Shown here: piece by piece, positions 10,172 to 51,300 of the stretch
How positions within the stretch are numbered: the stretch's first letter is position 1
Layout: each line of letters starts with the position of its first letter
Assembly: GCA_029560465.1 (NCBI GenBank)
Contig: JAKQKX010000073.1
Location: 79,411-143,410, forward strand
Direction of reading: 5' to 3'
Source: Candidatus Omnitrophota bacterium
GTDB taxonomy: Bacteria; Omnitrophota; Gorgyraeia; Zapsychrales; JANLHA01
DNA length: 64,000 bases
Notes under the pieces: model-generated
The model's input: the letters and a program-made list of their open reading frames with translations, nothing else
What the model was told of the DNA's origin: nothing
Databases searched by the model: none
Made by a program: the position numbers and the translations under genes

Positions 10172-10191
10172 TCTTTTTTCGAGAGGCTTAA

Positions 10192-14051: not shown

Positions 14052-14173
14052 TTTTAGTTTATTAGATAACCAGAATGTTTTAAGCTAAATAAAGTATGGC
14101 TTACTTGAGGGGGAGAACAACTTTCGGGTAAGCCATACTTTATTTATAATCAGTTTGAACATTAAAATACTCT

Positions 14174-14566: not shown

Positions 14567-14586
14567 TTAAAAATTTTAATAAGAAT

Positions 14587-14925: not shown

Positions 14926-14950
14926 AAGGCTTTAAAATGAGGGTACGGGC

Positions 14951-15259: not shown

Positions 15260-15279
15260 TGAAACGTAAATTTTAAATT

Positions 15280-16995: not shown

Positions 16996-17014
16996 GGATT
17001 ATAGGTGAATTGTT

Positions 17015-21341: not shown

Positions 21342-21362
21342 AAAAGTATTTAAGGACGAAAT

Positions 21363-21806: not shown

Positions 21807-21841
21807 TGATTAGGGGTTTATAAGGAGGCATAGGTTAAGCG

Positions 21842-22696: not shown

Positions 22697-22734
22697 TAAA
22701 TCAAACAAAGCCTAACCTAAGGAAGAGGTATATC

Positions 22735-24326: not shown

Positions 24327-27300
24327 ATGAATTTTAGATTGGACAAAAAACTAGGTGCCGAAACTGTCTCTAAAGGTATATTAGAGAATAGGTTAATTTC
24401 TGCGTCTGAAAGTATTGTCCAAAATGAATTAAAAGAAGAGTCTTTTAAAAGTAGATTTAAGTCTTGGATTCGGCTTGTTGCCCTTGTTGTTGTTTTAATT
24501 TTCCTTCCAGAGCAGGTTAGCTGGGCTTTCAACTACAATCCCGCTGTTCTTTGGGGACACTCGTCTTCGTCTGTTCAGGTGATTGACTTGGATTCTCCCA
24601 ATCCCCAGGTTTCTCAAGAAGAAATGATGGCGATACAGCTTTCCTCCGGTGTCGCCAATCTTTTGGAACAAATTGAGAACAAAGAAAATGCACAAATTAA
24701 ACTCGGGCTGTCTTCAGATATAAATAATTCTCTTTCTAGTGAGAAAAGCGTTTTAATTTCTGCGAAGAGGAAAATCACTCCGGATTATGTCCAATCTGTT
24801 AAATCTTGGATTCGTAATCCTAATATTCACCCATTTAATTGTGGTGTTTATGCTTTAAAAGATTTGTTAGATGGCAACAAAATTTCAACGTCTTTGGCTG
24901 AAATTGCTGTGGCAACTCTTTCCGTCGATCTTTTAAATAATATTATTGAGCCTGGAGAAAAATTCTTAAAAACTTCTCTTTTTGCGATTGAAGAAGTTGC
25001 CCGCGGATATGGTCTTAATGTTCAGGCCGTCAAGGTTGACACGCAAGACATCCTTTATCTGAAAACTCCGTTTATTGCCAATTTTGGTTCGGAACACTTT
25101 GTGACTGTTCGGTCCGTTGATGCTCAGAATGTGTACTTCTCTGATATTGGCAAGCAACAGTCTATGCCACGAGATCAATTTAAAGAGAAGATCAGCGGTT
25201 TTGTTCTTGCTGTCAATTTGGATCGCCAAGAAGATATGGAATACGAACCCATTTCAGACGCCATGAAGGTGTTTGTTTGGGGTAATAAATGGATAGACAG
25301 ATCAGATGATTTGCCCGGGTTGTTGTCTGGGGCGGATGTTTTTGCTGCTGTAATTTCCATGGTGGTTCAGATTGTCATCGCTTATATTATGGGTGGCCCG
25401 CTTGGAGTTATTATTTCTTTAGCTTCTTCAACTTTTGGTTCTGCCGTAGGGGAAGCGTATTATGTTAACTGTGTGAATGATGGCGGAGATGATTGTGAAA
25501 GCAATGCGTTTATTTTAAGCACAGCTATTACAATTGCTGTTTCAGTAGGTTTGAATTATATGGCCGGGATAGGATCTGAGGCCGGAAATGCAGCGGGCGA
25601 GGCTGCCGCCAGTGGTGGGGAAACCGCATTGGAGTCTACTGCCAGTACCGGCGCAACCAGCTCCCTTAGCACAGCTTTACAAAATGCGGCAGTTGGTGCG
25701 GCAGTTGGTGCGGCTCTCGGGTGGGCCGTTGCGAAGATGACGGGAAAAGATGCTACCAAGGCGGCGCTTATTGGTGGGTTAATTGGAGCTGCAGGAGGAT
25801 TAATTGCTGGTTATGGTGGGTTTGGTGAGGGGATTCAAAGCGCTTGGCAGAGTTTGATAACAAAACTTCAGAATATATGGTCTAGTATTAAAGGGTTTTT
25901 TAATAAGGTTTTTGGCGGCGGCGCTGCATCTACGGCAACGAGCACTACTTCCACAACGAGCATGACAGTGACTCAGCGGTTGTGGGATATTGCGAAGGCC
26001 TTTGCCAAAGGCTTTACGGTCGGGATGATTAAGGCTTATGTTCAAGTTAAAATTGCCGAATTTTTAGAAGAGCATTTGGATATTGATAGTGAAATTTTGA
26101 AATCGGTTTTAGTTGGGTTGATTTCTTCTTTGGCTGCGGATTTGGCGGTGGGTGTTGTTGCCATGGGATTGGACGCGGCCGCAGATGCGTTGTTTGACAA
26201 GCCTGCCAGTGGTGATACCGAGGATTTGGGCTGGCGTGAAATGTTGGGCATGAAAGATGACTCGGAAGCGTCAAAGAAACAATATGCCAATCAGCAGGTT
26301 GAAAAAGCGCAAATTAAGGCAAAGGCTGAAGGGAAGGGGCCGCTTACTGGTGATCAAATTGCGCAAGTTAAAGCGGACGCAATGAGTAGCTATAGTTCTT
26401 TTAAGTTAAATCTAGCAGACATGGGAATGATGGCCCTTCAGCGGTTAGCAGGGGGGATGGGGAGTTTTATATTAAGATATATATTTAAAGATAAATTCGA
26501 CCCAAGCTCCATGATGTCTCAAATTCTTGGCAATTTTGGGTCTTTAATCGGGATGACGCTGTTTAATGTGATCGCTTACGGAGACACTTGGGGAACAACA
26601 TATGATATTAAGAAAGAAAAAGACGAAAATGGAAATGATGTATATACTTATGAAAATGTTGGAACGAAAGAGAACATAAAATCTACTACAACTACAACCG
26701 AAGAGGGGAAAACGGTAACGAGTCATTATTCCGGAACGCATAATGTCACCATGCTTGATACGGATGGTAATCTAGATAACGGTTATGAAAAAGCGTTTGT
26801 TCAGGGATCTTTTTTGGGAACGATTTGGCGGGGTGCGGTTCAAACATTGGTATCGATGTTGTTGGCCCTTGCCCTTTTTGGTAAAGAAGATTTTTCAGAA
26901 GCTGAAGGGGCGGATGGGAAGACGCGAGACAAGGATGAGCGAGCCAAGCAATTTTGGACGTGTAGTTTAATTTTCTTAGGGTCTGTTCTTACGCAGGGTA
27001 TATTCGCATCAATAGCCGGAATGTTTAAAACGTCTGATTTGGCTGCTATAGGAACAAAAGATTATGAAAACCAACAAAAAGCAGGCGGAAAAACAGACGG
27101 GGAAGACAAGCAAAGCATAGGTTCTATTTTCTTGAATGTAACAGGAAATGCTTTTCAAGAGTTTGCTTCTAATTTAGTGGGCGATTGGGTTGGAACAGCC
27201 CCCACTGGCGGAAAGTTTGCTAACTTGTCTTCCTTTGGCACCTATGTTGAATCTATGCAAAAAATGGGCGGCATTACTTTAGATACTGTGTTGAAGGCCC

Positions 27301-30300
27301 AGGAAAAAAGAGAAGAGCTTGAAGAGAAAAGAGAAGAAGCAAAAGAGCAAATGGGTGGATATAATGCTCCGGAGGAGTGGTATGCCTGGGGTTGGGATGA
27401 CAGTATGGCAATTCCAGATGACCTGAAAGACGATGCAGAGAAAACAGATGAAGACATGGCCCAGGAAGCGGGGTTGCAGTTTTTGATTATGGCGGAAGAT
27501 AACCGGGTCGGTTTCTGGGTAGACAATTTTTCCCAGGTGGCGGCGATGTCTGCCATTACTAATTTTAAAAATAGTTTTGAATATGTAGCGTCCGCAATTT
27601 CACACGATTCCGGATACATAAAATTTTACCGGGATTTTCTTGGTTTTACCTTCCGTCCCATTGCCAAAGACGGGTCTTTTCTTGGGAAGAATTACATTCA
27701 ACTAAAAAGAAAAACAATCGGAGAGGATTTTGATCCCGAAAAAGAGGCGACAGAGTTGGTTGCCAAAATAGAAGAAGCAAAGGAAAAAGGCGACATAGAA
27801 GCGGACGGTACCCTGCTTACTATCGAGATGGAAGCCGACGTGGACTCGGCAGAAGATGTGGATGCTTTGGTTAGTTTTATGACGCTGGTAGAGGAAAAGC
27901 TGTCTGGAACAGCGGAAGAATCAAAGGGTGAAAAGGGTGATGTGCTTATTAAGGCGAAAGTGTTTTCCTCTAAAACTCAGGAAGAGGGGGGCACCGAAAG
28001 TCTTATTGCTGGTTACGGATCAGGGGATATAAAGCTAGTAGCCGGTTACGGAGCGGGAAGTCAACAGACAAGTGATTTTATGGTTGTGCCAAGACAACAT
28101 ATTCTTATTGGGGCAAATAGTGCGGACTCCGCAAACTATATTTCTTACAATTTAGTCGGAGCGGGAAATAAGGGAAGAGGCTGGGTTCAGACGGATACAG
28201 CCACAGGGGATGTTTATGAGGGGTTCCTTTCGTATAATCCATATACAGGACAATATTCTTATGATGGCCGGGCGTTCACGGTTGAAGAAGCGAATAAATT
28301 AGGCTTGGATCCTTCTATAATGAAGATTATCGCTAAGAAAGAAGAAGGAGATAAATCAGGAGGGGCGGAAGTAGATCTTTTTGGTGAAGGTTTTACGAAG
28401 TCGAAAGAATTGTCTATTATGGAAACAAGCCCCTCGGAATCGGAAAACTTTGGTGGAGAAGCGCAAACCGGTTACAATCGCTTGGTCGCGCTTGGTTTTG
28501 AGGATTTGGGGTTTGCCATTTATGATAAAGATGCGGGAACAGACGGGCAGGTTGATGGTGGGGGGAGTGTTTATCGTAGAGTTTTACAAGGCGGAGTTGA
28601 AGGGTGGCGGGCTAGGGCAGACGCAAGGGCGGAATATGCTGACCAGATGCGTGAGGCCAAAATTAAGCGTATTATTAACTGGCTGGTTCCGTTTGTGGAT
28701 ATTTGGGGAGAAGGCGAAATTCCGAATCCGGAAAAGGTTGTTTCTCCCGACAAGATGATTGAGGAAACGGTGAGTGCTATGCCGCTGACACAAAAGCAGC
28801 GGCAAGGTCAGGCAGAGGCAAAATTTAAAGCTGCCCAGTCGACGCCGATTCGTGTTAAGAATGCTATGTTAGAGAAGATAAAAGAGTTGGATGCGCAAAA
28901 AGACGCTGATCAGATAACGGAAGAAGCTTATACGACAGAGGTCGCTAAGTTGAACGCTTCCATTGCTAAGATAGATGAGCTTTTAAATGTTGACCCGGAG
29001 CAGGGTGTTTATGACACCTTGGCCACTGTTCCTGTTTATGCTGGTTCTTCTAAGCACAGATATATGCAGCTTTTTGAAGCCGGCGTATTTCTGGGAAATG
29101 CAGAAACAAATAAGTTAATAGGAGAATCGACAACTTCGTATGCAAAATATGAAAACGGAATAATCCAAGGTGGCGTTGTTGGTTGGGTTTTGGGAGATGG
29201 AATTGTTAAAAATCAGGGTGAAGTTACTTCTTTAGTAGGGAAAGCAGAAAATGTCCGCGCTGTTATGAAACAACTGGGTTTGGATAACTTTATTAATATG
29301 TCTGAAGAAGAGAAAAAGCAGGTTACGGATAAATTAATTGCGGCGTTGACGGAACAAGGTCAGGACGGGCTTTTGGCGAGCGTGAAGATTGGCTTTGAAG
29401 GCGGGGCCTTGGTTGCTGATAGTCAATTTGAAGGCGAAGGTGAGACCGACCCGGGAACCAAGCTTAGAAAGAGGATGTCAGCTGCGGATGTTGAACTTTT
29501 GAAGGCGCTTATTGCCACTGCCGCCTTAACGAGCGGATTGTCGGAAGAAGAGAGAATCAAGGCGGTAGAAGAGCTTTCTGTTGCCTTAAATGACGTGCAA
29601 AATATGGGTGATGTGGAAGCCCGGCTTATGGATATGACGACCCAGGATAATCCGATTAAAGATTTTCTGATTAACGCCTTGGAAAACACCTATGCTGGAA
29701 GTCCTACCAAGAATGTTACGATTAATGCTATGAATAAGTCTATGACAGAAGATGGGTGGGATCAGTATACCGCCAAAATGGAGGCGGGAACTAAACTAAA
29801 AGCCAGGGCAGAGGCGATTATTTCCGTTATTGAAGAGGTGGGTTTGGGGGATGTGCTTGGTCTTTCCGAAGAAGAAAAGAAAACCAAGGGCGCGGAACTT
29901 ATTGCCGCTTTACAGCAGGCGGGATTATTAGATAAAGATCAAAAAGTTCCAGACCTGTTTGATGCAGCCACATTGCAATCCATGAAGCTTGCGCTTGGAA
30001 CAATGTTGTCTGGCGGGGTTGCCGATGCAATTGTGGCAGATATGTTAAATCATCAGATATTGAATACCCTTATTAATGTGTTTACCAGCGGCCTTTCTGA
30101 AGAAGATAAAAAGAAGGCCGCTGTTTCTTTGCAGGGTGTGGAAACGATATCTGCTCTTAAAGATGCGGTCGTGAATTTTGCCACGAAAGAACCCCTGGCA
30201 GATGTCATCCGCGCTAGTGAAATTGATGATCTTGTCTTCAGTTACCATGGGGCGCTTGATGATGCCGGGAACGTAAGGTCAGATTTTGCTTTTAATTTGG

Positions 30301-33300
30301 ATGCCTATAATCCTGCCGCAACCCTAAAATCCCAGGCAAATGTATTCCTCCCCGGAATTGGTTTAGCACAAATATTAATCAGTGCTTTTGGCGGCGAATT
30401 GAGCGAAGAGGAAACGTCTTCACTAGTGCAGAATATGGCGAAAGTTTTTATAAATGGCCTTTCAGAGGTGGATAAAAAGAAGGCAGCTAGTGCTTTTAAA
30501 GATGTGCAAACGTTTGATGAACTTAAAAATGCGATTATGGGGTTGTCTTCGGGTGTAAGAAAAATTACCTTAGATGAAAATCTTTCTCCGGTTGACCCTG
30601 GATCTGGGCTTATGGTTCGCTCGATTTCCCAGGGAGGGCAGCTCTCTTTGATGAATTTATTACAGGGGGATGTTTTCTCCTCCAAGCTGAAGGGCCGGGC
30701 AGACACCCTTATGTCTATTATTGAAAGTGTCGGGTTGAATGATCTGGCGAACCTCTCTTCAGAGGATAAAAAAGCCAAGAGAGATCAGTTGGTCACCGCC
30801 CTGAAAAATGCCGGGCTTTTTGAAGGAGAAGGAAATGTTTCTTTGTTTGACCCAGCGGTTTTAAATGCCTTGGTTGCCTTGGGTTTTATGTCGCCCGAAG
30901 CCGTTGATACCATAGCATCCGGTATTATGGATACTGAAATGACGAATTTGCTGGTGAATGCGGTGGTGTCTTCCGGATTAACCGAAAGAGACTCAGAAAA
31001 GGCCGTTGCTGCTGTTAAAGGGGTGAAGACCATTGAGGAACTAAAAGCCGCCACAGAAGGTTTTTCTGGTTTTGAGGGCACGTCTTCTTTTATTGCGAAG
31101 GCTATTTATGGGGTTGATTCCCGCACCACGGAAGAATTGCCAAACGGACAAACCCGTGAAATTGCTAATATATCAGGCGGGGTCTTTTCCACCATCGCCG
31201 CTAAGTCTGAGGATGCGCGGTTGTCTAATGTTGTGAGCCTGATCACCTCTAACAAAATTTCAAACGAAGAATTGGAAGCCGCTTATAAAGCAGATTTACC
31301 TGTTATTAAAGGCGATAATTTAAATGACGAGCAAATAAAAATAAATGAAAGGAACGCTTTGGTCAATTCCCTTGTGGATCAAATGGAAGCCATGGGGATT
31401 TCTTTAATTGATTTTGTCAAAGCGGTTCAAACAGAAGGAACTTTATCCCAGCAGCTCTCCACAATGACTGTTGATACCAAAAAGCAGGCTTTGGCCGTTG
31501 CTTTGGATACAATTAAGGCGGAAAAAATAACGGCGGATGAACTGAAATCAGCGTATGAAGGCAAAGCTTCTTCTAAAGATAATAACGGTGTAGAACAAAA
31601 AGAAAGCAGCAGAACGAAATTAATAAAAGCCATTGTTTCTGATTTAAGAGACGTGGGAGCGACTTTTGCCGATGTGGCGGGGCTTTTGCAGGTTGCCGAA
31701 GGCCAAGATTTAAATCAATCTATTGATGCGAAAGCCCAGGAGCTTTTTACAAGGGATTCCTCGGTCTTCAAGGCCGCAGGGTTGATGACCAGTGGTAGAT
31801 CTTTCATTAATCAAGAAGGGCAATTGCAGTTTTCAGATGCATCTGTTTTAGGAGATTATATCCGCTTGCGGCAGGCTGGTGGGCAGGGTGGAACGGAACA
31901 GCCAGAGGGTTCGGTTGTCCGAAGCAAGGTTCTTGTGGGAGGGGTTGCTGATCTTTATACCGCGGATATTGGCGGTGCGCAGTTCCTGAAAGACACATCC
32001 TCCGGCGTATTTGAGATGAGTCCTTTTGTTATCCGTATGGATGAATTTGTTGCCCGTAATCCTAAAGTTGCGGTTTATGGTGATGAATGGGGCGCTCATC
32101 TTGCCAATGATAAAATAGAAGTGAAAAACATGGTTCTTAAGATTTCGGAAAAAGACGGAATCAAAGCCATTGATCATTATCTCACAGGACAAGAAGGCCA
32201 AATGCGTTATACGGGGGACACGCATTTAGCGGATATTATTAAGATTTCAAAGAAGGACTTGGTTAATGATGAAAAGTTGCAGCAGGCGGTAAAATATTTG
32301 GGTTTAACCATACCGGAAGAAGGCGATTTTTCTCTAGAACAAAAAGTGCAAATTCAGGGATATCTTGATGGGTACAGGGTGTCTATTTCCAGCAAGTCGG
32401 GTGATTTGGGATCTGAAGAGTGGGCTTCTAAAGTTCCTGCTGATGAAATATTGCAGAAATTCCTTGGCGGGAGCGGCATGCTTACGGATATGCCGGTTGT
32501 GACCCAGTCTGTGATTAAATACGGGGGAAATGGTGTAGAAACCATAATTGAGCAGAAAGAAATTAAGTTTGAATATAGCGATGACTCGGCTTCCAAAAAA
32601 AGCCGGCTGTCTATTGATGAAGACGGGTCGTTGCGGGTTGTTTTGGCGTCTCCGTATTCCATGCTGAAAACTGAAATGAAAGTTGATGGGGAAACAGGTG
32701 TGCCTTATATAGAGAAGATGAATGAGAAAGACCCTGTTTACCTTTTGGCCAGAATACCCGGGTTGGGGAATGAAGTCCTTGCTCCGAATAATCCTGGTGA
32801 GCAAAATGATAAAAAGACCGTAAGCTCCTATGATGTTATGCTCACTAATATTATAAAAGTCGGCGCCGCGGAATATGCTGGGCAAATGATGGATGTGTAT
32901 GCTGGCAACATCAATGGCGATATTGAAACCGAAACATACACGGCCAAAGGGAAAGATGGGGCTGTAAAGGAGACATACGCGGCTCCTCTTCCGGCAGATA
33001 AGAATGACCGTTATCGGAGAATCAGTTTTCTGGCGATGCCGTTCCTATACGGGAATTTTGGCACTAAAGATAACCCGGTAGGCATGAATCAATCCCTCCA
33101 TAGTTTTTATATTGAAAACAATGTTTCTGATATGGTGGCCGGAGCAACAGCGGCATATTCTACGCAAGATCCAACCGAAAAAGGGCCTGGAACGGTTTCG
33201 ATGAATTCCAGGCAAAGAATTTTGTCCAGGGCCGGGCTTTTGCCGATTAATCGTATTTTATCATCAAACGGCACTATCGTTTCGCGTTTTCTGGGGAATG

Positions 33301-36300
33301 GGGCTTTAACTATTATTGACGGCGTGGTTTCCACGGTGGATGGAAGTCAAACATACTTGATTGCGGAAAGCGTCCCGGGCGTAGCAAGGGATTTGAAAAA
33401 AGGTGAAGAGTTTCAATTAGATGTTTTGGAATCTTCGGATGATCGCGATGGTATGAAGCAGTCTTATGCGTATGATTATAAAGTGACAGATACCTGGGAG
33501 CAGATCGGCTTCGAAGAAGGCGGGAGACAGGAGTATGTGGCAGCGCATCGTTATACCGGACGCACTAACGATGAGACAAATAGGGGAAAAATATTAGTGC
33601 TGGGCGCCGCCTCTGGATTGATGACAGCGAAAGGGAAAGAAAAAGGGATCCCTGAATATCTTAAATTGAACAAAAATGGCGCCACGGTTTATGGGGATTT
33701 TGAGATATTCGCCGATGAACAAACCCCGGCATGGGTTAGAGAGCATTACAAAGATGTCGGCGGCGTTATTACCTTCCAATGGGCGGCTGATGGAGATATT
33801 GCGAGCAGCCGCATGAAGGCTTCGGAAGGGGATATGTTTGTCGAAGAGAATATTTTTAGTGTTTATAATATTGATAAGTCGCTCGCTGAGGCTGTTGAGA
33901 GTTTAGGCGGGTTGGAGAGTTTGGATGCGAGGGATGCCGATAAAATCGTGGCGGCATTGAAAAAAGCAGGCGTTAAGGGTGTAACTAAGCAAGGCTTACA
34001 ACTTGTTATGCGCGGAAATTCGGCGGGTATTGAAGCGAAGCTGAAGAACGCCGGTATTAAAGTAGAAGAAGGTAGCGTACAGGCCCCCGCTTTAACGGGT
34101 TCTGGTTTGTATGAATCGGCTACAGTGTATTATGATTCGGTCTTAAAAGGATTCAAGCACCGTGCGACAGATTTTGTTGTTGATGGTAAAAATATAGAGT
34201 CTGGACATGTTTTTGCTTTGGGTCAGCCAACGGCCGAAGGAATATATGTTATGACAGGGGCGACTCATATCCCGGGAGTTGCCGGAAGCTATTATGCCAT
34301 TGGTCCGACCAAGAAAGAAGCCGGGTTGCCTACACATTTTTATTTTTATGATTCTGAACGTGAATATAAAGCAGATGGCAAGCTGTATAAATCCCCAGAT
34401 TCAAAAGGTTTTGTGGGTATTACGATTAGCCCGGACGGCCAGAAGGAAGGCGTTAATACAAAAAGCATGTATATGCAGGTTGGCGCTGATGCCTCGGTTG
34501 GGTTGGGCAAGTCGTATATGAGGGGTTTATTCGACTTGGCTGCCAAGAGGGAGCAGTTTGATGAGAGCAAAAATATAACAGCAGAACAGGCAGTGGCGAT
34601 TGAGAACGGGATGGAGGCTGCGTTTCAAGACTATTCTAAATTAAGTGATGCCGAGAAACAGGGCATGAGTTTTATGGATTATATTAAGCAAAAGAAAATG
34701 CCCGCGAGTTTTTATCTTTCCTTAATTGCCATGGCAGAGGATGCGGAAATTAAAGAGTCGCACGGGGATTGGCCGGAAATGCAAAAACGGTCGCAGTCAA
34801 AAACCCCAACTTTTAAATCCGAGTTAGCCAATAAGTATTTTGGCAGCCTTTCTCCTGAAGCTAAAAAAGAACTTTTATTCAGGGCTTGGAAACGAGAGGA
34901 AGAGAGGCAAATCCCGCTGTTTTTGGCTAATGACGAATATAAAGAGAATTTTGGGAGTAATGGGTTTACTCGGTTTATTGCCAAGGTGGGTTTAAGACAG
35001 TACCAAGCGCAGGAGGCGCAGTCTGCGGCTTATACTGGTGATTTGATTGAATCGTTAGAGGCAGCAGGGGTAAGTACTATAGTAAACGGGATGACGAGTA
35101 AGGAAGAGATTGCTAAAAGCAATGATTTTCTTATTAATTCGGTTTTAGCTCCGAAACAAACTGAATTATGGCATGGAACAGGAGCAAAAGGAGAGAAATT
35201 TAATATTTATGAGAAACTTTACGGCGCGCAAAAACATGTGGCTTATGTTGATGCGGCGTTTGAAGGAGAGATGCGTTTTATTAGGGACGGAACCTGGGGC
35301 CCTGCTAATTTGACTTTTGGCATAGGAGACAAAGACGGGGATGGCATCCCAGAGGTCTTGGCTCGTATTATTGGCGGATCAGTGGACGGCACCCCGGCAG
35401 TTTTCCTTACGGATGATTCTGGGCCGCAAGGCGGCTTGTTAAGAGATAGATTTGTACGAACCTCTTATATTGATGGAGCATTACAAGTTACTAAGAGCGG
35501 TGGATGGGCGTTTAATGTGATTTCTGGGAGTGCTGTTTTACCTAGTGATTATGGGACTTTGGCGAAAACAGGCGGATTGAACCCGAATTCTTTGATAACC
35601 GGTTTGGGGCTTTCTGATTACAGGGCTGGCCTGATCAATGGTGCAGGGAAAGCTGACTCGCTTCAACAACTATCCCCGGCACAGTTGTTGAAAGTCATGT
35701 CTCTGTTTTCTCAAAAAACGTTAGTGACGGATCTCCTTACACCAGAGGAAGTCGGTAAAGATAATAAATATGTTGGCTCCATCGTTGCTCAATTTGGAGA
35801 CACATCCAAAGGATTTTCTTCATTGATGCTTGAATCGGCCGGGTTTTTCCAGCTTGTTTCCACATTAGGAGAAGGACAGATAGTCCCTGCGAATGAAGCT
35901 CTTGCAGCAGAGGCTGTTTATGACTTGCTTTTGAATGACGATTATGGGGGAGGGTATCAATATTCTTTTCAACAAAATAAGCTTGGCGCTATTATTATGC
36001 CAACCACCCTTTCATCGAAACAAGTTGTGGATGAACTTAAGGCACAATCCAAAGAAGGGGTTCTTGTTAAGTCTGAGACCGGCATGGTTTTTCTTGTTTC
36101 CCCGGAGGAGTTTAAGAATGGACAAAATAGGTATGAAAAGGGGAAGAAAAAAGGAATAGTTGTAAAAGATATAAAGACAGGAAAGGTCGCCATAATTGAT
36201 AATGACGACATGATGACCGCGTCAGATTTTTATGTCAATGGGGTAATTAATGACTATAGAATTGGCTCGGAACGCGTAGATGGAAAATGGAAAGAAATTC

Positions 36301-39300
36301 TAGGAGACTTGCCTGTAAGAATAAAGGCGTTGAAATGGGAAGAAAAGAGACCCATTGCCAAGGGGAGTACCCGTTCTGGTTTTGAGCTGACCATTAATGG
36401 CGTAACGAAACATTTAGATTCTTCCCAGGAAGTGCAAGTTTTGGTTACACTTGACGACGGCAGACAGGGGTGGGTGGATTTGGCGGATGCTTTCTCTGGT
36501 AGTTCTTCTAAAGACTGGTATGGTGGGCCAGCGACCCTTACCGATGCAGAGGGTAGAACCTTTACCAGAAGAGTGTTGTATTCTAATGTGGAAGAGCTTT
36601 TTGTGACTGCGGAAGTGTATGAAGGAAAAGATTCAGCAGGCAATGATATTGTTAGACAAATTCAGGTTCCTTATAACAAATATAAAGCGGGCCACGAATA
36701 TAAAGGAGAAGAAGGCAAGAATCTTTGGACGGGGAAAGACCATGGATGGGCCATAAGTTTTCGTAGTGCGGGGTTGGCTGGATGGGATGATTATGTGGTG
36801 CGGGTACAAACAGGAGAAAATGAGTTTACTTATATTAGAGTAGACAATAAATACGCCGATGCGCCTGTAGATGGAAAAATAGGAGACAGGTCTTTTTGGA
36901 AGGGGACTATTGATGCGCGTCCTTATTATGATGGCTTTTTCCAGGGAGTAGTAGGAAACTATGCTGTGGATGATGCGTTAGGTCTGTTTATGCGAAACGG
37001 CAAGGTGTTTTTTGCTAATTTTGATAATGAGGATGATGGCCCTATAGGCATGTTAGTTAGGGACGAAGTTCTTAATAAAGACGGGTCGGTGTTGTTGCCG
37101 GCGGGGATTGGAAGTCGTAACAGCGATGCTCGGCAATTATTTAGAGTAGGAGAATCATTACAGACAGCGGCCAACATTCAAGGGACTTTAGATGCTGTTA
37201 CAGGGATTGTTACTGTTGCCACGATTCCTTTGACGTTTGGTGGAAGCAGCGCTGTAGGCGGGGCGGCTGGAAAATTTGCTGCGAATCTTGCAACAAAAGG
37301 TCTCGTTGGGAAAATTGCGGCTGGGGCAGTTAGACTTGCCGCACAAGCTGGAAAGACGTATCTTACCAAAGGGGTTTTGGTTTCCTGGGGGTTGGGAGAA
37401 GCCTTGGCATTCGCACAGAGTGGTGAAATTAATGTTGGTCAGTCAGCTAAGAATCTGTTGCTTTTGGGTGGATTGGCCAGGGGCTTGGGCTTTGTTGGTT
37501 CTTTGGCCAAGGGCGCCACGATGGCCGAAGCCATGGCCGCCGGGTCGATAGGTACTGGGACAGCAGCCGGTGGTTTTAAGTCATTGATGATCAAAGAGGC
37601 CATTGCTGTGGGTGTTCCGAATGCGATTTCAATTATGCAGGGCAATGGTTTGTTGGCTCCGGAAACGAACATGGTTTTAGTTGCCTTAGGTTTCTTCAGT
37701 CCGGGTGGGGCCTCCATCGCCAATGTTGGTAAGAATATTTCCACCGCCGCCCGACTTGGCGCTATGTCTTTATCTGCCGGTTTGGGGTTTGTGTATTGGG
37801 GTGGCGCTTCAATTGCGTCTCTTGGCGCTTTTCACGGCAATACCCAACCGGGTTGGGATGTTATTAAGTCCGTTCCGTCTAATTTCCTTATGGGTTTTGG
37901 CTTCGGCGGAGCTTTTGGTTTGGCTGGCATGGGCTTTGCCAAAGCCGGACAATCTGCGTTCTTTTCTAATTTTTCAACAAATTTCCCGAGAGTATACAAA
38001 TTTTTATCTAATCCCATTACGGTAAACGCCGGAGTCGCAACCGCAGGAGCGGTTGGATTACCGACCATAAGAGGCGTTTTAAAGACATTTGAAGCCAGAA
38101 CGGTTGCGGATAAAAATTTAATGGATAATATAGGAAGTGAATTCACATTAGCCAACATGGTAACTGGAGCTTTTATTGCGTTGGCTTATAGAGGATTGGT
38201 TGGGAAGGGATTGACCAGTAAAGGGCCGTTATTAAAAGCCCCGGCAGCAAGCACAGTAGAACAAAGTGCTTTAGCGGCACAGAAAGCCGGACATACTGCC
38301 AAGTATGGAATGGATGCTGTCAGTATTAAGTATGGCTTACAAAAGATTGGGATTGGTGCCGGGATCGGTGCCAGTGCGAAAGTATTAAATACTGCGATCA
38401 AAGATATTTCTGGAGAAGATGTTAAATGGCAACAGTATGGGTTGGATGTGTTGTCCGGCGGTGCTTTAGGGGCGTTGACCGTTGCTTTTATGGTTCAGCC
38501 CAAAAATATAACAGGAACAGCGCAAGGGAGTCCGGGGTATTATTGGGCGAATCCTGAGAAGCTATTCGCAGCTATGGAACATGGGGCGGCAAAATGGGTT
38601 TATGTTTCTCCCACCTTTGAAACAATGGGGGCTTTTTGGAAAGGGGTTTCCGCGCGGATAGAGAATGCTATTTTAGGAGAAGATTCCCGCTATGCCAAGC
38701 AAACAGGAAAAGAAATGCCCTGGTTCGCGGTGGAAAATGTGGATGAAGAAGGCAAGTTTAAAAATGAAGACAAAAAACTGATTTCAGTTTTTAGAGATGA
38801 TAAGGGGAGGTTCACACCAGATCGTTTAATAGATGCTAGTTTGCAAGGGCCGCAATCTGGTCTTTGGATGGCGCCATTGTTTGGGGCAATCCAAACCCAG
38901 GGGTTAAACGGCGGGCTTGCTCAGCGGGGATGGCAAAAAGCTCTGGCGGTTGTTCAGAACCCGTTTTCCGCCTCTCCCACGCTTATGAGTTTGGCAGAGG
39001 GCAAAGTGGGGATGGTGCTTTCGACTCTTTATCGGGACGCGTTATACATGCCGGGATTAGTTACAGGGTTAAAAGAAGTCGCGTCTTTTTCCAACCAGGC
39101 CGCGAAAGCTTGGACCGGAGAGGACTCGGTTGTTGTCTTTGACGCAGCCGAGGCTTCGGGATTTGGATGGTTGGGGATGCTGGCTTTGCCGACATATACT
39201 TTACTACCGAAGCCGGTCACAAAATTGTCCTCCAGTGACGAAACTAAAAAAGAAGTTATGGAGTTGAGCGGAAAAACAGAGGCGGATATTACCGCGCTTT

Positions 39301-42300
39301 CTAAGGGAGAAGCGGGCGATGGCAAAGGTTCTTCTTCTCCTGTTGCCTATACGAAAGACGGGACCAGGATTTATTTGGTTGAGAATGCCGATGTGATTAA
39401 AAAAGGAAGAAATGTTATCGCTTATCAGCACAATGCTGGTGTTGATGGGAAGTCCATCATTGTGGCGGTATATTCCGGATCCGCGGAAGCTGCTTTGGGC
39501 CAGATATCAAAACAGCTTTCCGCCTATAACGCAGCCCAGTTTAACAGCGCCGGTGTCAAAACTGGGAAAAAGAATGTCTTCTCTTCTAAGGGAGGGTGGG
39601 TTAATAGAGTGTTTTCTCGCTTGGGGGGAGGGGAAGTCTTAGTAAATGGTGAAACAGCCAGGGGGGCTGTTGTATCTAAAATTTTAGGTATGTTCGTTGG
39701 TAAAGGTGCTAAAGCTGAAGCAAATATTTTGATCGGCAAGTATGAAAATCTTAAAGGTCAGACACCGTCACAAATTTTATTTAAATATGCAGAGAGCAGG
39801 GGGGGAAAGAGAGGGATAACGAGTGCTGAAAAGATAGCGACCGTTTATTCCTCTATTTATTCCGCAACTGCAGGTGATCGCACAGCCGTGATAAATAAGT
39901 CAAAGTTGACGTCTGGGCAGAAAGAGGTGTTGAAGAGCATGTTATCTGCTTATGATCGTGTGCAGGCTGATCTTTCCTCGGTTCAAAGCACCAGTAGATT
40001 TTTTAGAAGTAAGAAAAGCGCGGCTCTTCAGAGTGTTTTGCTCTCCATGTTGGATATAAACGACTCGATCCTGAATCCTACCAATCCATATGGGAGCAAG
40101 AAAGGGTTGGAAGTGAGACCAGAGCAGGTGGCGGTCCAGATTTTGACTGAGAAAGCCGGCCGTATGCTCGGCGGTGAAGTTTCGCTTGGTAAAACAATCG
40201 CCACAATAAGCGGTATTTTGCAGGATATAAGGGGTGGCCGTGTTTCTTCTTCTAAAGGGAAGACTGTGGTTATTGAATATATATTGAGAGAAGACTTAAT
40301 AGGGCGGTTAAATATAGAGGCCGCCCAGGGGACATTAGATATTTTGAGCGGAAAGGGGAAATTAGGTCTCTCAAACGGAAAAATAGTTATCCGTGACGGC
40401 AAGAATGCGGGCAAAGAGGTTAAAGTTAAGGTTAAAGTTTTTGAGCCACCCACAGAAGGGTCGGCTAATGCCGAACAATACAAAGATTTAGTCGATGTCA
40501 GTGGTGCAGTGGATGCTTCTGGCCGCCGAAGATTTGCTTTTGCAGACGCTAGCCCGGTGGAAGCGGGCGACATTGTTCTGGCGATTCTGGGGCCGAGAGC
40601 ATTTCAGCACAGAGAGTTAGGAATGAAGTATCATTTTAAAGGCGCGCCTAAGAAAGGAATGTTTGGGGCAGGCGAAGGGGTGCAATGGACCCGAGTTAAG
40701 GCGTATGCGGATGATATTGACCGTTTGGTCGCGGAACCCGGGATGCGTTATGCCGGCCGTATGAATATGTCGGCGTTGGCGGATGCGGGATTGAATAAAG
40801 AAGCTTTGGATGGTTTAGCGGAACTGTTGCTGGGGGTATATACTCGGTATGATGCGGCGAAAGGCGGCAAGGTAGGAGGAAACAAAGAAGAAGCCGCCAT
40901 TGGCGAAGCCATGGATCCGGCTTTAAAGCTTTTGGATCCTTCTTCAAGAAAAATATTGCAGACTGCCCAAATTCAGCAATTATATGGACAATTAGTAAGA
41001 GAATTTTATGACAGCGTTACCGGGCCTAACGGAAAAACTAAATTGGTGGCTAACAAGAAAACCCAGTTGTTGGAGAAATTGTTAAATATATCTTCGGAAT
41101 ACCGGGATTTCTCCAAGGCCATGGGAAAAAGGCAAGACGCGGCTTTGCTTTATCTGACGCAGAGTTGGGCTCAGGCGACGTCTGGAACAAAGGACACCCC
41201 TGGCCTTTATAAAACAGGGCGGGATGTGTTCAGTTCTTTCATAGATCGGCATGTTTCTGATTGGGGCGAAGGGTTGATTCTTAATATGGGCGGCGGCGGG
41301 CTTCGTAATCCGGGAACTATGCCCGGGCATAAGGGTTTGGAAATTATGCTGGTCATACGTATGATACTTGAAACAAACCCGAAGAATCAGTCTGCGGAGC
41401 TAAAAGAGTACGTAAAGTATCTTGAGGAAAATATGGGTGTTACGCCGCAGACAATCAAATTAAATACAAAGGCCGGTAAAGCGGAAGCTGTGCAGTATAT
41501 TGTTAACGCCATGGCTTCCACCTCCCAGTTTGATATGAGTTTTGGGGAAGCTTTGCGCGGGAAAGCCGGAGGGGTAAAACCATGGAAGTATCTTGTGGGG
41601 CTTACCGGGACCCCGAGGTCAGCGAAAATAGGGTTTAGTGAATTAGGTTTGGTGTCAGCCATTGTCAGCCAGAGAGCGCCCTTGAGAACCGATTCTCAAC
41701 AAGGGCAGGTGGCTCGTGCGGATGTGGTTGCCTTGACCGGAAAACAACCGGGCAAGGGCTGGGAAGGGATTTTTACAAATAAGAATTTGAACGATAGCCA
41801 ATTGTATTTTGTTGCAAATGCCAAAGACGCAATTAAGGCCTCTTCTCTTCCTGATAATGTAAAGCTCAAACTGATAAGTTTGGCGGAAAAAACCACCACC
41901 TTAACGTTGGCAGGAAAGGAAGGGGTCGTTGGTACTTTAAAACAGAAAATTCAATATGTGGTTAAATTAGCTCAAGGTCTGGAAAAAATTAATGGAGAGG
42001 ATCGTTCCGGGTCCCGGGTTATTTTGGTGTCCCCGTCTGGCGACACCGAGGCGGCCATGATAAACAAGACCTTTAAAAACATGAAAGGGGTTGAGGTTAT
42101 CGGAGTCGGGTTCGGTAGCGACAAGGGTTCCCGTGATGCGGTTATAGAAAAAGTTACGGAGAGAGTCAAAGGCATGACAAAAGACGAGAACAAGGTTTTT
42201 CTCGTCGTAATTGCCGGCGAGTTGTCCGGGTCAAACTTAATGCCCATCGCCAAAGATTTGTCTAACGAGGGGGTCAGAGCTATCCCGGTTTTTACGGACA

Positions 42301-45300
42301 TCAGAAGTGAGGCCGCTTTGCTTCAGTTTATCGGTCGCGCGAGCATGCCCTGGAACCGCTCCGGGCGTGTAATAATGGATGATATAGGGAGCATGGGTAT
42401 TTTTGATATGATGAATACCGGGCTTACGACAGATTTGAGAACAGAGATTAAAACTGTTCAGGCCCAGACGGTGTTGGATCTTTCTAAGGCCAAGGCCGAT
42501 GGAGCCTCCTTTGTTAAGCAGGCGGCAATAGTTGCTAAGGGCGAAGCGAAAGTAGAGCAGATTTTTCTTAAAGCAATTGCGAGGCAGGAAGCTTTTGAAG
42601 CCCGGAACATACGCGGGTTGATCGTTCAGAACAATTTGATGTCGGCGGCCCAGACCACGGAAATTTTAGCCATGGCTGAAAAAGCCGGTTCTGGAGACCG
42701 GACTGGACAGATGAAGGGACAAAAAATAGCGCAGTTGATTTCCAACCGTGCTGCCGAGATCGCCAGCGGTAATACCACCATGGCAAACATAGGTTTTATG
42801 CCGGTTGCGGATTCTAATGTGTTGGGTGGAAATTTTGTGGGGACAGGAGACGGAAGCATCGCGTTATCTCAAATAGGGTCTTGGACACAGAATTTAGGGG
42901 GGCAAGAATCTTTTGATGTAATCCGAGAAGGTTTCAATATAGAGGTATTAGAAGCTGGAATTGGGACGCAGACAATAAATACAAAAGGTGGGAAGGTCTG
43001 GACGATTCCCGGCTTGTCTTTCTCTTTGTTCACTCCTGCGGAGGACAGCAAGAAGCTTTATGCCGTTTATACTGACAGCACAGGAATCGTGACTTCTAAA
43101 GTTGAGCTTGATCAGGATTGGGCGGCAACGCTGAATAAAGAAGGTGGCAGTATCACAATCCCCACAGGAAACAAGAGCGAGACCATGACCCTGACAAAAG
43201 GGGCGAGAGCAGATACGTTTAAGTTGGCGTATGCCTCCACAACAGGCTTCCAAAAAGATTCTTGGACTTTAAAAGCCCAGGACGCCTATACGATGAATGT
43301 GGAAGGTTTTGGCGTCATGCCGATTGCCACGGAGCAAGATCTCCTGTCAGCCCTGAAGAGCACCGACGTGCGCAAATATCAGACAGGCGTGTTGCAGCCT
43401 GTGAGCAGACAAGCGGTTGTCGCTTTGCTGGGTGAGAAATCGATGGGTGACCTGGAAGATATTTTTGAAAAAACAGGGAATCAGGGAACAGAAGTAACCT
43501 TTACGCAAAATTATCAGGCAGGAATTGACCGGGCGGTGAGTGAAGGCACGATAGAAAAGAGCCAGGGTGACGCTTTAAAGAAGATGGCTAAAACTAAAAA
43601 GGTGGCTAATTTGAGCCGTCAGTTCCTGATGCCTGGCAGCGGTGAAGATACTGCTCAGCAGGAGCCGCGGGTGCAGAATCTTGATATAACGGTTCAGTAT
43701 AAAGGGAATAATATTTTGACTCGTAACAAGAGGGGCGGTTTGGAAATTGGGGTGACCCCGATGATCGGTAGATTTGCGAATGCGTCCACGCGTGCCCGGG
43801 CCTACCGTATGATGGCGCAAACGCTCATGTTGAACAATAATTCTCTGGGCGTGGTCAGTCTTTTAGATGCCGTGATAGCGCAGCAGACGACAAAAGAGTA
43901 TTATGGATACACAGCGGATGAAGATATTGACCAGGAAACACGGTTAGCTATTAAGCGGGCGACATTGCTTTCTTCTCGGAGCGCAGAGGCAAAGGCTCAA
44001 ATTAGTGAATATTTGTCAGCAGGTTCTGGCGAAGGGGTAGCAGAGACGGCTGGAAAACAAATTCAGCAAAAAATGGCTAATGCGACCGCCCGGAGATTGC
44101 TGTCCTCTTATGAAACCATGGTGGATATTTATGGGTATATCGCCCCCAGTTTTGTTTATAATGATGCTTATGCGCAGGATTTTGCACAACAGGTAGAGCA
44201 AATTCGTCAAGAGCAGGGAACGGACGCGGTGGCGCGGGTATTAGCGATTGCTCAAAACGCGAAGAAAATAATCAACGATGGTGTTACTCCTTTAAATTTC
44301 CGGCAGAGATATATATTAACAAAGTTGGCGGAATTGGCCGAACCGGAGAACGAATCGAAAGTCAGGAATTTGATCAGTGCGCCGGTTAGTCTGGGGGAAG
44401 GACTGTATTCCAAAGAGTCCGGTGCTGGCATAAGATTGTTATTGCCTGAAGAAATGACAGACCGGGATCAGGGGCGCGCCGCTTATAGCTCGGATAGACA
44501 TGAAGTTCAGGTTTCCATGATCAACCTTGACCTGACCGGAAAGATTAGTGATAAGACATTTTGGGGGTATGATTTTTGGCATGAGAGCGTGGATCACCCT
44601 GGCTTGGACATTACCAATACCATATTGATGACAAGAGTCAATCTGAACGAAGTCGGCGCTCAATTATTATCTAATTTAAGAATGCAGGACGCCACCCTCG
44701 CTGATACAGAAGAAGGGAAGGATTTGCGGCAGTCAACAGACGTGTTTAATAAGATTTTTGGTAATCTTATGGACATTAAGACAGTTAAGAAATTACAGGA
44801 AACATCATTGCCGGAAATGGCGGATATAGCCTTTAAGAAATATAGTCTCATCCAGCCGGAAGGCGTTAAAAGAGAATTAGAAGCTGAAAGATTTGCTTTT
44901 ACCGCTATTAATTTGATGCAGACCGCTTTAAAAAAGGGCGGAGTGGATGTTTTATATCAGCTGGACGATGAACTCAACGCTTCCAATAATAGAGAAGGGG
45001 TCTACACTCCGAATATCTTGGCTAATTATAGTGAAGCTGAGCATGGGGCAAAAATTTATGTGAAAAAAGGTGGCGTGATTGGAATGGGCAAGGAAGTGTC
45101 TCATTTGATGGCGCTTTTCCATGATGGCAACCATGCTTTAAGCGAAAAGAAAGAAACCGCGTCTCCGGGGTATATGTCCGCCAAGGTCGCTGAGTTGCGC
45201 CAGATTGTCAGTGAAATGAATGACCCGAACCTTACGGAAGCCGTGGGCAGGCTTTTGGATCGGTTCCAGGCTATAGGAAATAATAAATATGACCATCCCG

Positions 45301-48300: not shown

Positions 48301-51300
48301 AAAAAGCGCAGGTTCAGGAAATTATAGAAATGGCCGCAGTTCAAATGAAGCAATTGGAAGCAGAGAACGGCAAGGCGGCGGTGGCTAATATTCGCCGGGA
48401 CTTCAATGACAGTGTCCGTTCGATGATGGATAAGATTGAAGTTAGCCCGGAGGTCAAGAAAGATATAAGGTTAAGCAGCTATGAACAGAAAAATCCGGCG
48501 ATGTACGGATGGCTGACACAGGCGATCAACGAAGTGGATGAAGCAGCGAATGATGCTCAAGGGCCTTTGTCACACGGGATTACTTATGTGGTCAAAGGTG
48601 GAAAGATATACACGGATGGAACAAAGGCCCCGCACGCCACCTTTATGAATGAGAAGAATTATCCGGAGTTGGGTGGCTTGAAGACCGGCGGCGCCGATTA
48701 TATAGGGTATATGCGGGTCGGCAAACAAAACGGGAAATTGGTATTGGCGGTTGACAAGGGGTCTAATACGGCCAACAGCAGTGCCCAATTGAGAGACTTC
48801 TCTCGTAAGATTGGCGAGTTAAAACGGGTATTAAATGACTTGGGAATTCAAGCCATTGTTTCGGTCAATGGCCGCGGGTTAGAAGCCGATGGTACGTCCT
48901 TAAACGGCCTGAGAGCCCAGAATTATATAACCGATGCGCCCACTAATATTGTTGTTTCTTCCGCGATTACAAAGATGGCGGCCGGTGATGTTTTACGGAC
49001 TCAGGGCAAAAATCTTTGGGCTAACCCGGCGGTGCAGGATACGGCCGTGTATCTGTCGCAGAACGGGTTGGATGAGAGCTTCCAGCGTGTGGAAAAATCT
49101 TCTCTTCCGGCTTACATGGAAGTCTACGAGAAAGACGGGATTCAGATTATTCGTAAGGAATTAACCCGTGAAAACGCCAATGAAATTAGGCAATTAGCGC
49201 AGGCGCAACGCCAGTCGAATGTCCCTGTTTTCTTTGCCAAGGGTGACACGGAGCATTATTATGAAGTTAATCTTGCTCCCGAGGGATATACGACAGCTTA
49301 TCAGGTTGTCCGGAATTCTCCTGATAGATTGGCGAAACTAGCTGAGATTCAGCCGTATATTATGGCGGCGGCTGACGACGGGTTGAGATTTGACAACAGC
49401 CAGTGGTTTGTCCATAATCACCTGCATCCTAAGAATATTATGATCAAACAGAACGATGCCGGTGAAATTGAAGATGTGAAATTTATCGATTGGAAAAAGT
49501 TAAGTAGCTTTAACCCTGCGGCGAAACCAGAAACAGCGCTTCTTCAGCAGGGCGACCAGAACGCGTTAAAAGGCGTCAAGGTTGAGGATGTGGGGTTAGA
49601 GTGGTTTGATTTCACGGATTACGATTTGAGTGGCACTGACTTTACAAAGACCGCCAAGATTTTCGGGTCTTATGTGGATCAGGCCAAGACATCTCAAGAA
49701 ACCAATGTGCCGGAGATGGAAGTTGGTTTGAACTTTGTGGCGTTGGTTCCAGCTATCCCGGCTAACAGGAAAGACGCTACGCCGCGTTTAAGAGGCGGAA
49801 TTCAATCGTCTCCTGTTCAGTTGACCCAGAAGCCGACCGCGGAACAATTCTTGGCTATTAAACAGGCGGTTGCCAAGTCTGATTTCTTCAAGGAAAAGAG
49901 CATTGTCAGCATAAGATCCAATGCCTCTGAACAAGATAAGGCTATTTATGAAGACGGGAAATTAAATGTTAACTTAAATAATTTTGATCTTAAAACAGTT
50001 AATGCCCTCCAGTCTTCCATGGGGGTTGGCGTGGAGCAGGCTTATACGGAATACGCGACGGTTGTTTATAACCATGAAAAATTCCATCGCGAAACGATCA
50101 GTAACGAAAAGAAACAGCGTAGTGCTCAGCCGAGAAAATCCGGCGATTATACCCAGCGCGAGTTGCAGGGCATTATTAGTGAGGCAAGAAAATCCGAGGA
50201 TGATAATATCCGGACGGCGGTTGCAGAAATTGATAAGATTATGTCGCAATCTTACCATTACTCTCCGCAAGACGCAGATTTCGGCGAAGAGATGTTCGCT
50301 AATTATATAGAGAATGGCGGATTAATGGTAAGAGGGGTTTCTGGATCTGGAACCCGGGACGTAAAATTCGTGCTGGCGGCCAACGCTTTAATGCAGAATT
50401 TGGTTAAGCAGAATAAGATTTCCAGGGCTTTTGTTGATCGGATCGCGGAGAAAGCCGAAACAAAGGACACGGCCTTTGATCCTATGGCCACGGATGCGGC
50501 CCGTTTCGTCGCCAATCCCGAATCTTATGCTAAGACGATGTTGGTTGCGGCCAAGAGCAGTTCTGTTTCTTCTCCGATTGAAAGTGATGATTATTCTGAC
50601 TTTGAAGCGGATCGGCCGTATCAGCCGTATACGAACGTGGCGGCTCGGGATGTTTTACAGCCGTTATTCGCCGGAACGCCCGACGCTAGTTCCTTGTCAT
50701 TCCTGGATGTAGGGTCTGGTTCCGGCATTAACACGGTTGCAGCTGCTTCCGAATATAAGGTGAACGCGATTGGTATAGATCCTCAAGCCAGCAATGTGCA
50801 GTTCGCGCAGAATTTGGTTAAATCTTATGCCGGCAATTTAAAAGAGCAGGGCGCTTTTGAAAAACCCGGGGTTGTGGATACCCAGATTGAAGATTTTGTC
50901 GCGCAGGGTGTTCAGCCGAAATCGGTTGAAAACGCGAATTTTGTCGAAGGCAGCGCTACGGATCTCCCGTTCTCCGATAATTCCATTAACAGAATCGTTT
51001 ATACGGATGTTGAGCCTTTCATCTATGATCAAGAAGGTAAAGATAAAGCTATTGATGAAATTTTAAGAGTGGTCAGTAAACAGGACGGGAAGATTATGGC
51101 CCGACCTAAAGCTGGGGCCAAAGAAAATGACGTGGCTGTCTTTGTCGACCGCTTCCGGAATACCGCCGCCCAGAGAGGGCTTGCCTTAGACGTCCAGCGA
51201 ACGGAGATCGCTGGGTCGAACAATGGTATTCTGTTCACGGTTCGGCAGTCAACCCCGGCTTCTTCTCCGATTAACGTGGCTCAAATAGACTCCTTAGAAA

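Follow-up and report, generated by a model that had tools for sequence, protein, structure and literature searches.

What does a Gly/Ala-rich hydrophobic stretch do about 4,300 residues into a protein of more than 13,000 residues? The question is raised by a contig of a Candidatus Omnitrophota bacterium (JAKQKX010000073.1, assembly GCA_029560465.1), of which 64,000 nucleotides (positions 79,411 to 143,410, forward strand) were analysed; this whole stretch is called the window, and all coordinates refer to it. An initial annotation had described the segment at 37150-38560 as a second membrane-embedded module, possibly a pore-forming element aimed at another cell. The stretch proves to be a real feature, the hydrophobic portion of an unannotated, conserved module that spans about 770 residues of a giant protein of the Omnitrophota type. 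The chances are about even that this module serves the producer as an internal anchor, or as a re-entry module, in its own cytoplasmic (inner) membrane.

The protein is encoded as follows:

24327-63998, forward strand: giant open reading frame (ORF), frame 3, open from nucleotide (nt) 24312, first ATG at 24327, more than 13,224 residues inside the window

The frame ran without a stop codon from nt 24312 as far as the window reaches, a length of 13,229 codons (ORF analysis) and above the 10,000 residues that mark the Omnitrophota giant-gene class (C39-type or Archaeovorin-like giants). The ATG at 24327 was the start also used by the gene calls on three other contigs with the same upstream gene (including L010 and L011). 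Residues are numbered from the codon at nt 24312, so that 37150-38560 corresponds to residues 4280-4750; the five peptides quoted in the initial annotation were all found, in frame 3, within residues 4298-4547.

The region was confirmed as a compositional extreme. In a 451-residue core (residues 4290-4740, nt 37179-38531), D, E, K and R made up 11.1% of residues, compared with 24.0 ± 2.7% in the other 451-residue segments of the giant protein (z = -4.7), every one of which carried more charge. Glycine and alanine amounted to 32.6% (17.7 ± 2.6% elsewhere in the protein, z = +5.7), and the grand average of hydropathy (GRAVY) was +0.47 (-0.30 ± 0.16 elsewhere, the highest other segment reaching 0.26). 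I, L, V, F, M and W accounted for 31% of the region, which fell on the folded side of the boundary in a charge-hydropathy plot, and residues 4290-4970 held 7 of the 32 uncharged runs of at least 20 residues in the whole protein. The flanks, earlier called soluble and beta-rich, had an ordinary soluble composition (27-29% charged residues upstream, 23% downstream); their beta content appeared only as low-confidence AlphaFold2 strands.

The GxxxG/AxxxA spacing, to which the initial annotation had drawn attention, was no special feature of the core. GxxxG occurred 10 times, compared with 12.0 ± 2.9 in 2,000 shuffles, and [GAS]xxx[GAS] 72 times, compared with 69.5 ± 5.2 (z from -0.7 to +0.5 over the spacing tests). 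Because the counts match those of shuffled sequence, the small-xxx-small spacing is a by-product of composition.

The noted extent lay inside the module and covered part of it: the feature was larger, and its hydrophobic tail was outside 37150-38560. The layout was as follows, with Kyte-Doolittle (KD), Goldman-Engelman-Steitz (GES) and Wimley-White (WW) values; TM-A and TM-Z are putative transmembrane (TM) segments, and dN/dS is the ratio of nonsynonymous to synonymous substitution rates:

36969-39281, forward strand: whole conserved module (residues 4220-4990, about 770 residues), from HMMER and BLAST homology to proteins P0001-P0006 and loci L002-L008
37191-37271, forward strand: TM-A, first conserved hydrophobic peak, AVTGIVTVATIPLTFGGSSAVGGAAG, 26 uncharged residues, KD15 about 1.7, GES peak 1.77
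37272-37601, forward strand: Lys/Arg-rich Gly/Ala stretch, +11/-4 in the charge table; dN/dS 0.25 with 6 gap columns against L002
37602-38081, forward strand: low-charge core (residues 4431-4590), 5.6% charged, GRAVY +0.63, with four to five uncharged runs of 21-34 residues
38082-38438, forward strand: middle stretch of mixed charge (residues 4591-4709) with one hydrophobic helix candidate, FTLANMVTGAFIALAY
38439-38501, forward strand: TM-Z, second conserved hydrophobic peak, LDVLSGGALGALTVAFMVQP, KD15 about 1.8 in the window and the homologues alike
38502-38861, forward strand: best-conserved sub-domain, about 120 residues of normal charge, marked by invariant columns; dN/dS 0.09
38862-39221, forward strand: conserved hydrophobic tail with the motifs YMPGLVTG (39045-39068) and GFGWLGMLALPTY (39159-39197, WW -5.7)

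In distant homologues the KD15 of TM-A was about 1.6. The low-charge core started with the conserved motif E-A-x-x-x-G-V-P-N (nt 37596-37622), and in TM-Z two glycines (in GxxxG spacing) and one leucine were invariant in the alignment. The sub-domain carried the motifs NPxxLF...GAxKWxYVSPxFxxGGAxWxG (nt 38595-38618) and GPxSGxWMAP (nt 38847-38876); the tail motifs in the alignment were GPxSGxWMAP, YMPGLVTG and GWLGxLxxPxY. A hypervariable, indel-prone patch with near-identical flanks was seen at residues 4316-4348 (37257-37355) against L002 and L001 (DNA alignment to L002). The versions in L001 and L002 were alike, and both were unlike that of the window.

Homologues were few. When 1.84 billion representative proteins were scanned exhaustively with HMMER, only six relatives came back (P0003 with E = 1.4e-23, P0004 with E = 5.4e-8); P0001 and P0002 are fragments of one gene in a close relative (contig L001), and P0003 and P0004 are fragments of other giants, aligning to the query by BLASTP at 26-27% identity over 580-620 columns. 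Among the matches listed by word-indexed searches, the region alone found P0001 only and the A1 profile found P0001 and P0002 only. A pattern scan of GTDB gave six loci, L002 (95% identity) and L003-L007, the latter from metagenome-assembled genomes labelled 'Candidatus Omnitrophota bacterium', and a metagenome scan gave one further locus, L008, where the module likewise sat in a giant ORF. Wherever the loci were labelled, the label was Omnitrophota, except for the record of the near-identical L002, titled 'uncultured Planctomycetales'. In the GTDB loci every module match was inside an ORF covering most or all of its 20-kb locus. The homologue set is small, with about ten lineages.

Across this set the module was well conserved. 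In a nine-sequence alignment it aligned at 24-31% identity with its homologues, and the invariant positions other than glycine included one Phe, one Lys and the Glu that opens E-A-x-x-x-G-V-P-N, together with the motifs W-x-x-V-S-P-x-F...W and G-P. Smoothed hydropathy of the window protein followed the mean of the distant homologues (r = 0.74), with two peaks common to all, at residues 4295-4312 (TM-A) and 4715-4727 (TM-Z). Codon comparison with L002 gave dN/dS values of 0.06-0.14 and zero indels over residues 4412-5011, compared with 0.21-0.33 just upstream of the module and 0.36 just downstream; the module is under strong purifying selection. It was present in single copy in the giant protein (masked and chunked self-BLAST) and had no homology by BLASTP to the first hydrophobic cluster of the protein at residues 334-905 (E of at least 0.86). 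When the whole window protein was compared by BLAST with the 20-kb loci, L003-L007 shared detectably only the C39 N-terminus (L003) and the module. P0003 and P0005 additionally shared about 400 residues upstream of the module and the domain downstream of it.

Several observations were made around the module in its relatives. Synonymous divergence (dS) from L002 was about 0.85-1.24 at residues 3416-4267 (about 34560-37110), compared with 0.2-0.35 in the preceding 2,000 residues. The jump points to a mosaic or recombinant origin of residues 3416-4267, on the upstream side of the module, and a second dS spike was found at residues 7830-7979. In L001 (9376-11673; ENA ERZ21869516 contig_25), the giant gene was called as four ORFs of more than 3,751, 206, 545 and more than 9,409 residues; the frame changes, within and just after the module, would be either long-read indel errors or the mark of a disrupted gene. 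In L007 a decapeptide repeat region (about 8590-8810; Pfam PF25296, E = 4e-16) was directly upstream of the module.

Known families were sought for all nine module members. Pfam gave no relevant family at E of 5 or below (the hits were unrelated and confined to single members), PHROG gave only two weak matches, one member each, to families without name or function, and a profile search of the module against PDB sequences gave no match. These two libraries should include models for Gly-zipper proteins, holins, colicin, VacA and the TcdA/B pore, and Pfam should include one for RtxA repeats. The initial annotation had proposed a comparison with glycine-zipper pore-forming toxins and holins, and neither likeness was borne out. 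A glycine-zipper pore former was rejected because the spacing equals that of shuffled sequence and none of the nine members matched a Gly-zipper or VacA model at E of 5 or below. Holins are small stand-alone proteins of lysis cassettes with 1-4 TM helices; the region sits in an ORF of 13 thousand residues, with no Pfam holin hit and, in PHROG, only the two weak unnamed matches. No similarity to the translocation domains of large toxins (TcdA/B pore, MARTX repeats) was seen: Pfam and the PDB profile search were negative and Foldseek, with a low-confidence model, reached a best E of 0.4. Thus nothing in Pfam, PHROG, PDB or Foldseek supports placing the module with the glycine-zipper, holin, colicin, VacA or TcdA/B-pore families. 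Glycine-zipper peptides (the VacA N-terminus; Gly-zipper_Omp, Gly-zipper_YMGG and Gly-zipper_OmpA) resemble the module in their Gly/Ala-rich hydrophobic runs and in the one conserved GxxxG of TM-Z; the module differs in being hundreds of residues long, with invariant motifs of residues other than glycine and spacing at the shuffle expectation.

The module is placed just before a P-loop domain, which begins about 300 residues after it:

40074-42461, forward strand: P-loop domain with SF2/SecA-like motif order, its motifs conserved in L001, L002, P0003 and P0005

The motifs were, in order, GGEVSLGKT (40170-40196), DDID (from 40710), a 290-residue insertion, GLTGT (from 41598), AGELSGSN (from 42213) and QFIGRAS (from 42324). 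We take this order to be that of SecA (NBD1-PPXD-NBD2) and of superfamily 2 (SF2) helicases. The hydrophobic run VFLVVIAGELSGSNLMPIA (residues 5962-5980) looks like the motif-V strand of this domain and would then not be a TM helix. Comparable strings were found in other loci: MGGGKS...DEIH...GLTGTMNE about 650 residues after the module in L006, and in L004 a Pfam DEAD match (E = 1.3e-5, just under the gathering cut-off) about 1,230 residues after it. Alignment of the P-loop domain with the DEAD region of L004/L005 by hhalign was not significant (probability 1.1%), with two motif-V-like strings paired. With the domain as query, a word-indexed homologue search found no relatives among the matches listed. 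AlphaFold2 (three sequences) modelled the domain at a predicted local distance difference test (pLDDT) score of 35.3, and a Foldseek search with this low-confidence model had a best E of 0.015 and none of 0.001 or below; SF2 helicase lobes were prominent among the matches, mixed with other P-loop ATPases.

Whether the module spans a membrane was judged from hydrophobicity scales. A GES/TopPred-like scan, in which Gly, Ala, Ser and Thr count as favourable, called 10 'certain' and 5 'putative' segments at residues 4290-4966; a GES-type scan of the giant protein gave two dense clusters (residues 334-905 and 4290-4966) and scattered peaks, and the KD, Hessa and WW scales gave far fewer. After TM-A most homologues had a net-positive stretch (+11/-4 in the window, +29/-7 in L004), which is the polarity expected for a segment with a cytoplasmic C-terminal side. 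The AlphaFold2 model of the module was, at low confidence, almost all-helical (about three-quarters helix). The claim of a second membrane module stands in part: the region is a distinct hydrophobic unit of low charge, probably helical, which lies deep inside the protein and has no relation to the first cluster, and its spanning of the membrane depends on the scale.

A number of results weigh against a membrane anchor. The 19-residue KD peaks of the region were only 1.56 and 1.65, which is borderline and makes the runs of the initial annotation only marginally hydrophobic. In a simple Hessa sum one segment only, FLMGFGFGGAFGLAGMGFA, was on a par with the N-terminal ones. WW octanol sums of the region were -0.07 to -2.8 kcal/mol. 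Most segments of the N-terminal cluster reached -5 to -8.7, whereas sums as weak as those of the region turned up as background in stretches of the protein that are plainly soluble. Because KD, Hessa and WW are marginal while the GES/TopPred-like scan calls many segments, the answer on membrane embedding varies with the scale. The core of the homologues was more charged (about 10-15%), and the loop charges beyond TM-A, read by eye, had no consistent positive-inside topology. AlphaFold2 (six sequences) gave the module a pLDDT of 37.9, with 588 of 641 residues below 50, as is to be expected from an alignment of six sequences only, and Foldseek with this low-confidence model found nothing significant in PDB. 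For the P-loop domain, Pfam and PDB sequence searches were negative, so that its SecA-like identity is unproven. Structure and amphipathicity had been proposed as checks in the initial annotation; the former gave the helical low-confidence model just described. Interfacial amphipathic helices were also considered and were dropped, as the basic stretch showed no significant amphipathic periodicity (z = 0.8) and the core a modest one (z = 2.7).

As an anchor, the module would work as follows. TM-A and TM-Z, two conserved hydrophobic helices, would flank a bundle of helices that are rich in Gly and Ala, almost free of charge and marginally hydrophobic, packed tightly in or on the bilayer, and TM-Z would be followed by the conserved sub-domain of about 120 residues and the short hydrophobic tail. 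TM-A comes after 3,400 residues of ordinary composition and is followed by the net-positive stretch. We infer that the segments are membrane-embedded, and infer likewise the number of spans and the sidedness of the flanks. On the cytoplasmic side of the membrane the module would then tether the P-loop motor, putatively SF2/SecA-like, as well as the GGDEF, methyltransferase and kinase-like domains, and set them apart from the 3,400 upstream residues. That the downstream domains depend on ATP, GTP or S-adenosylmethionine (SAM) speaks for an anchor in the inner membrane of the producer itself.

The alternative that survives best, possible though rather unlikely, is a soluble or peripheral helical domain packed through Gly, Ala and Ser, with no span, whose uncharged Gly/Ala runs mislead the predictors. 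The marginal KD, Hessa and WW values of most segments are consistent with it, as are the equal WW values in soluble parts of the protein (for example VFLVVIAGELSGSNLMPIA at residue 5962), the 10-15% charge of the homologue core, and the tail motifs GLWMAP, YMPGLVTG and GWLGMLALPTY, which are short and contain proline. However, a GRAVY of +0.47 over 451 residues, and of +0.63 with 5.6% charge over 160 residues, is far outside the rest of the protein and unlike that of usual soluble domains; the region has seven runs of at least 20 residues without charge, and TM-A and TM-Z are kept as hydrophobic peaks. Published experience also supports a soluble domain, since TM predictions on such giants were called unreliable, TMHMM and DeepTMHMM disagreeing (West-Roberts et al. 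2023, 10.1101/2023.11.21.568195).

It is improbable that the module, by analogy with the delivery regions of large toxins, is a conditional insertion or pore module aimed at a prey or host membrane and soluble until contact. Marginally hydrophobic Gly/Ala helices would fit the soluble-membrane switching known from pore-forming toxins, the Tad/secretin locus lies upstream, and the C39 peptidase could process the protein; action at the prey surface was proposed for Omnitrophota giants, and pore formation for similar giant ORFs of other ultra-small symbionts (PMC10066038). Against this, Pfam and PHROG gave no pore, holin, glycine-zipper or toxin-translocation match, glycine-zipper periodicity was lacking, and no evidence of cleavage sites flanking the module was found. 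Moreover, the more than 8,000 residues after the module, with domains dependent on ATP, SAM and GTP, would most simply be cytoplasmic in the producer. Large toxins (TcdA/TcdB delivery domain) also have a hydrophobic, helix-prone stretch in mid-protein and a cysteine peptidase in a very large protein; unlike them and MARTX, the module has no repeat structure or Pfam match, the peptidase is 4,000 residues away, and the downstream domains are cytoplasm-like.

A further reading, which we regard as a long shot, makes the module and the P-loop domain a built-in translocation unit. About ten marginal helices, with the invariant Glu and nearly conserved GVPN and the W-x-Y-V-S-P-x-F sub-domain, would form a channel or insertase and the SecA/SF2-like ATPase would be its motor. 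Such a unit would serve to thread or export partner proteins or portions of the giant chain itself, and would explain why module and P-loop domain both belong to the few conserved pieces of fast-diverging giants. The likeness to SecA-SecYEG lies in the motif order (Walker A, Walker B, long insertion, TGT, motif V, motif VI) and in the roughly ten hydrophobic segments that precede; the present protein differs in that neither sequence nor fold searches matched it significantly to SecA or SecY, and in that motor and hydrophobic module would be fused in one polypeptide.

Finally, an intrinsically disordered Gly/Ala low-complexity linker, held up as the counter-case in the initial annotation and suggested by pLDDT values below 50 for 588 of 641 residues, the high Gly and Ala content and the hypervariable patch at residues 4316-4348, to which linker-like variability was confined, is largely refuted: the alignment of divergent lineages at 24-31% identity (E, F, K, W, VSP, F, W and GP being invariant), purifying selection (dN/dS 0.06-0.14, no indels over residues 4412-5011), 31% ILVFMW, the folded-side position in the charge-hydropathy plot and a model about three-quarters helical all speak against it.

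The protein was compared with the giant genes published for Omnitrophota. Their conserved locus comprises a Rotamase_2 peptidyl-prolyl isomerase, rcpC, a gspD-like secretin, gspE-like ATPase, gspF-like and class III signal-peptide genes (10.1101/2023.11.21.568195). The corresponding features of the window, besides the module and the P-loop domain, were:

3626-23625, forward strand: upstream locus like those of Tad pili and type II secretion systems (T2SS), from Pfam
24474-24530, forward strand: N-terminal segment like a signal anchor or signal peptide, LVALVVVLIFLP... (residues 55-73), KD 2.08, WW octanol -7.9, with a basic stretch before it
24972-25217, forward strand: Peptidase C39 domain (Pfam PF03412, E = 4e-9)
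25311-27026, forward strand: first hydrophobic Gly/Ala-rich cluster (residues 334-905), from hydrophobicity scans, not homologous to the second region
about 50703-51089, forward strand: SAM methyltransferase domain, from Pfam
about 51912-53879, forward strand: three GGDEF domains, from Pfam, which are also internal repeats of each other

By Pfam the locus contained a PpiC/Rotamase_2 isomerase, RcpC/CpaB, a secretin, a ParA-like plus T2SSE ATPase and two T2SSF genes; for the class III signal-peptide gene there was only a weak match (E = 0.037), below the Pfam cut-off. Three marks of the giant class were found, namely the ORF above 10,000 residues, the upstream secretion/pilus locus (with its class III signal-peptide gene weak) and an N-terminal C39 domain near a signal-like segment. 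Judged on sequence, the locus and the protein architecture are those published for Omnitrophota giant genes. The window protein and the published giants are alike in an ORF of more than 13 thousand residues, a C39 domain beside a signal-like segment, the upstream locus, GGDEF, hydrophobic clusters far from the N-terminus and a P-loop/SecA-like domain just after one of these. Pfam SecA_DEAD, a class feature of the published giants, was not detected in the window part of the present protein.

The initial annotation was right that the hydrophobic module lies far inside the protein, and the topological puzzle that it saw there is an already published feature of Omnitrophota giants. The V. archaeovorus giant ORF of 39,678 residues has 42 predicted TM helices (Seymour et al. 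2023, PMC10066038), Omnitrophota proteins of at least 10 thousand residues average 22, TM segments taking up about 2% of the residues whatever the length (Nielsen & Lui 2026, 10.64898/2026.06.07.730766), and TM regions followed by SecA-related domains, possibly anchored by them, were described in these giants (10.1101/2023.11.21.568195). Hydrophobic clusters deep inside Omnitrophota giants are therefore known, and for that reason a specialist would not be surprised by this one. In the published giants TMHMM/DeepTMHMM output was given in bulk and the module was not defined; here it is a delimited, conserved, single-copy family with motifs. What is new is that an unannotated module has been delimited and its motifs named, that it belongs to the few portions of the giants that can be aligned, and that it is placed just before a P-loop domain. 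The result refines the known picture and overturns nothing, and it removes the glycine-zipper toxin and linker readings. As Omnitrophota giants are almost unannotated and their topology is called unreliable, the module is an anchor for aligning giants that are otherwise unalignable, and its limits give a concrete handle on them: a fragment to express and sites for reporter fusions.

Some minor observations concern the upstream locus and the rest of the giant protein. The secretin ORF (5536-7479) ended in a C-terminal TonB_C domain, the pilus ATPase ORF (7659-9821) was a ParA/CpaE-like domain fused to a T2SSE/CpaF-like ATPase, and three large ORFs inside the Tad-like locus (10730-12433, 15280-16995 and 17295-21341; 567, 571 and 1,348 residues) had no Pfam match. 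The C39 domain kept both its Cys motif NCGVYA (nt 24837-24854) and its His motif EHFVTV (nt 25092-25109). Because the hydrophobic segment ahead of it is basic on its N-terminal side, the domain may face the periplasm, in contrast to the cytoplasmic C39 domains of ATP-binding cassette (ABC) exporters. The giant protein also had a weak kinase-like match in Pfam. Repeats were found elsewhere in it: a 21-residue unit, SP(M/V)AMAQAQPGG(M/L)M(Q/T)VSS(A/T)VV, occurred four times in a duplicated block at about 55833-56924 (residues 10508-10871), and a duplication of 130 residues paired residues 1827-1957 with 2124-2252 at 42% identity (29790-31067).

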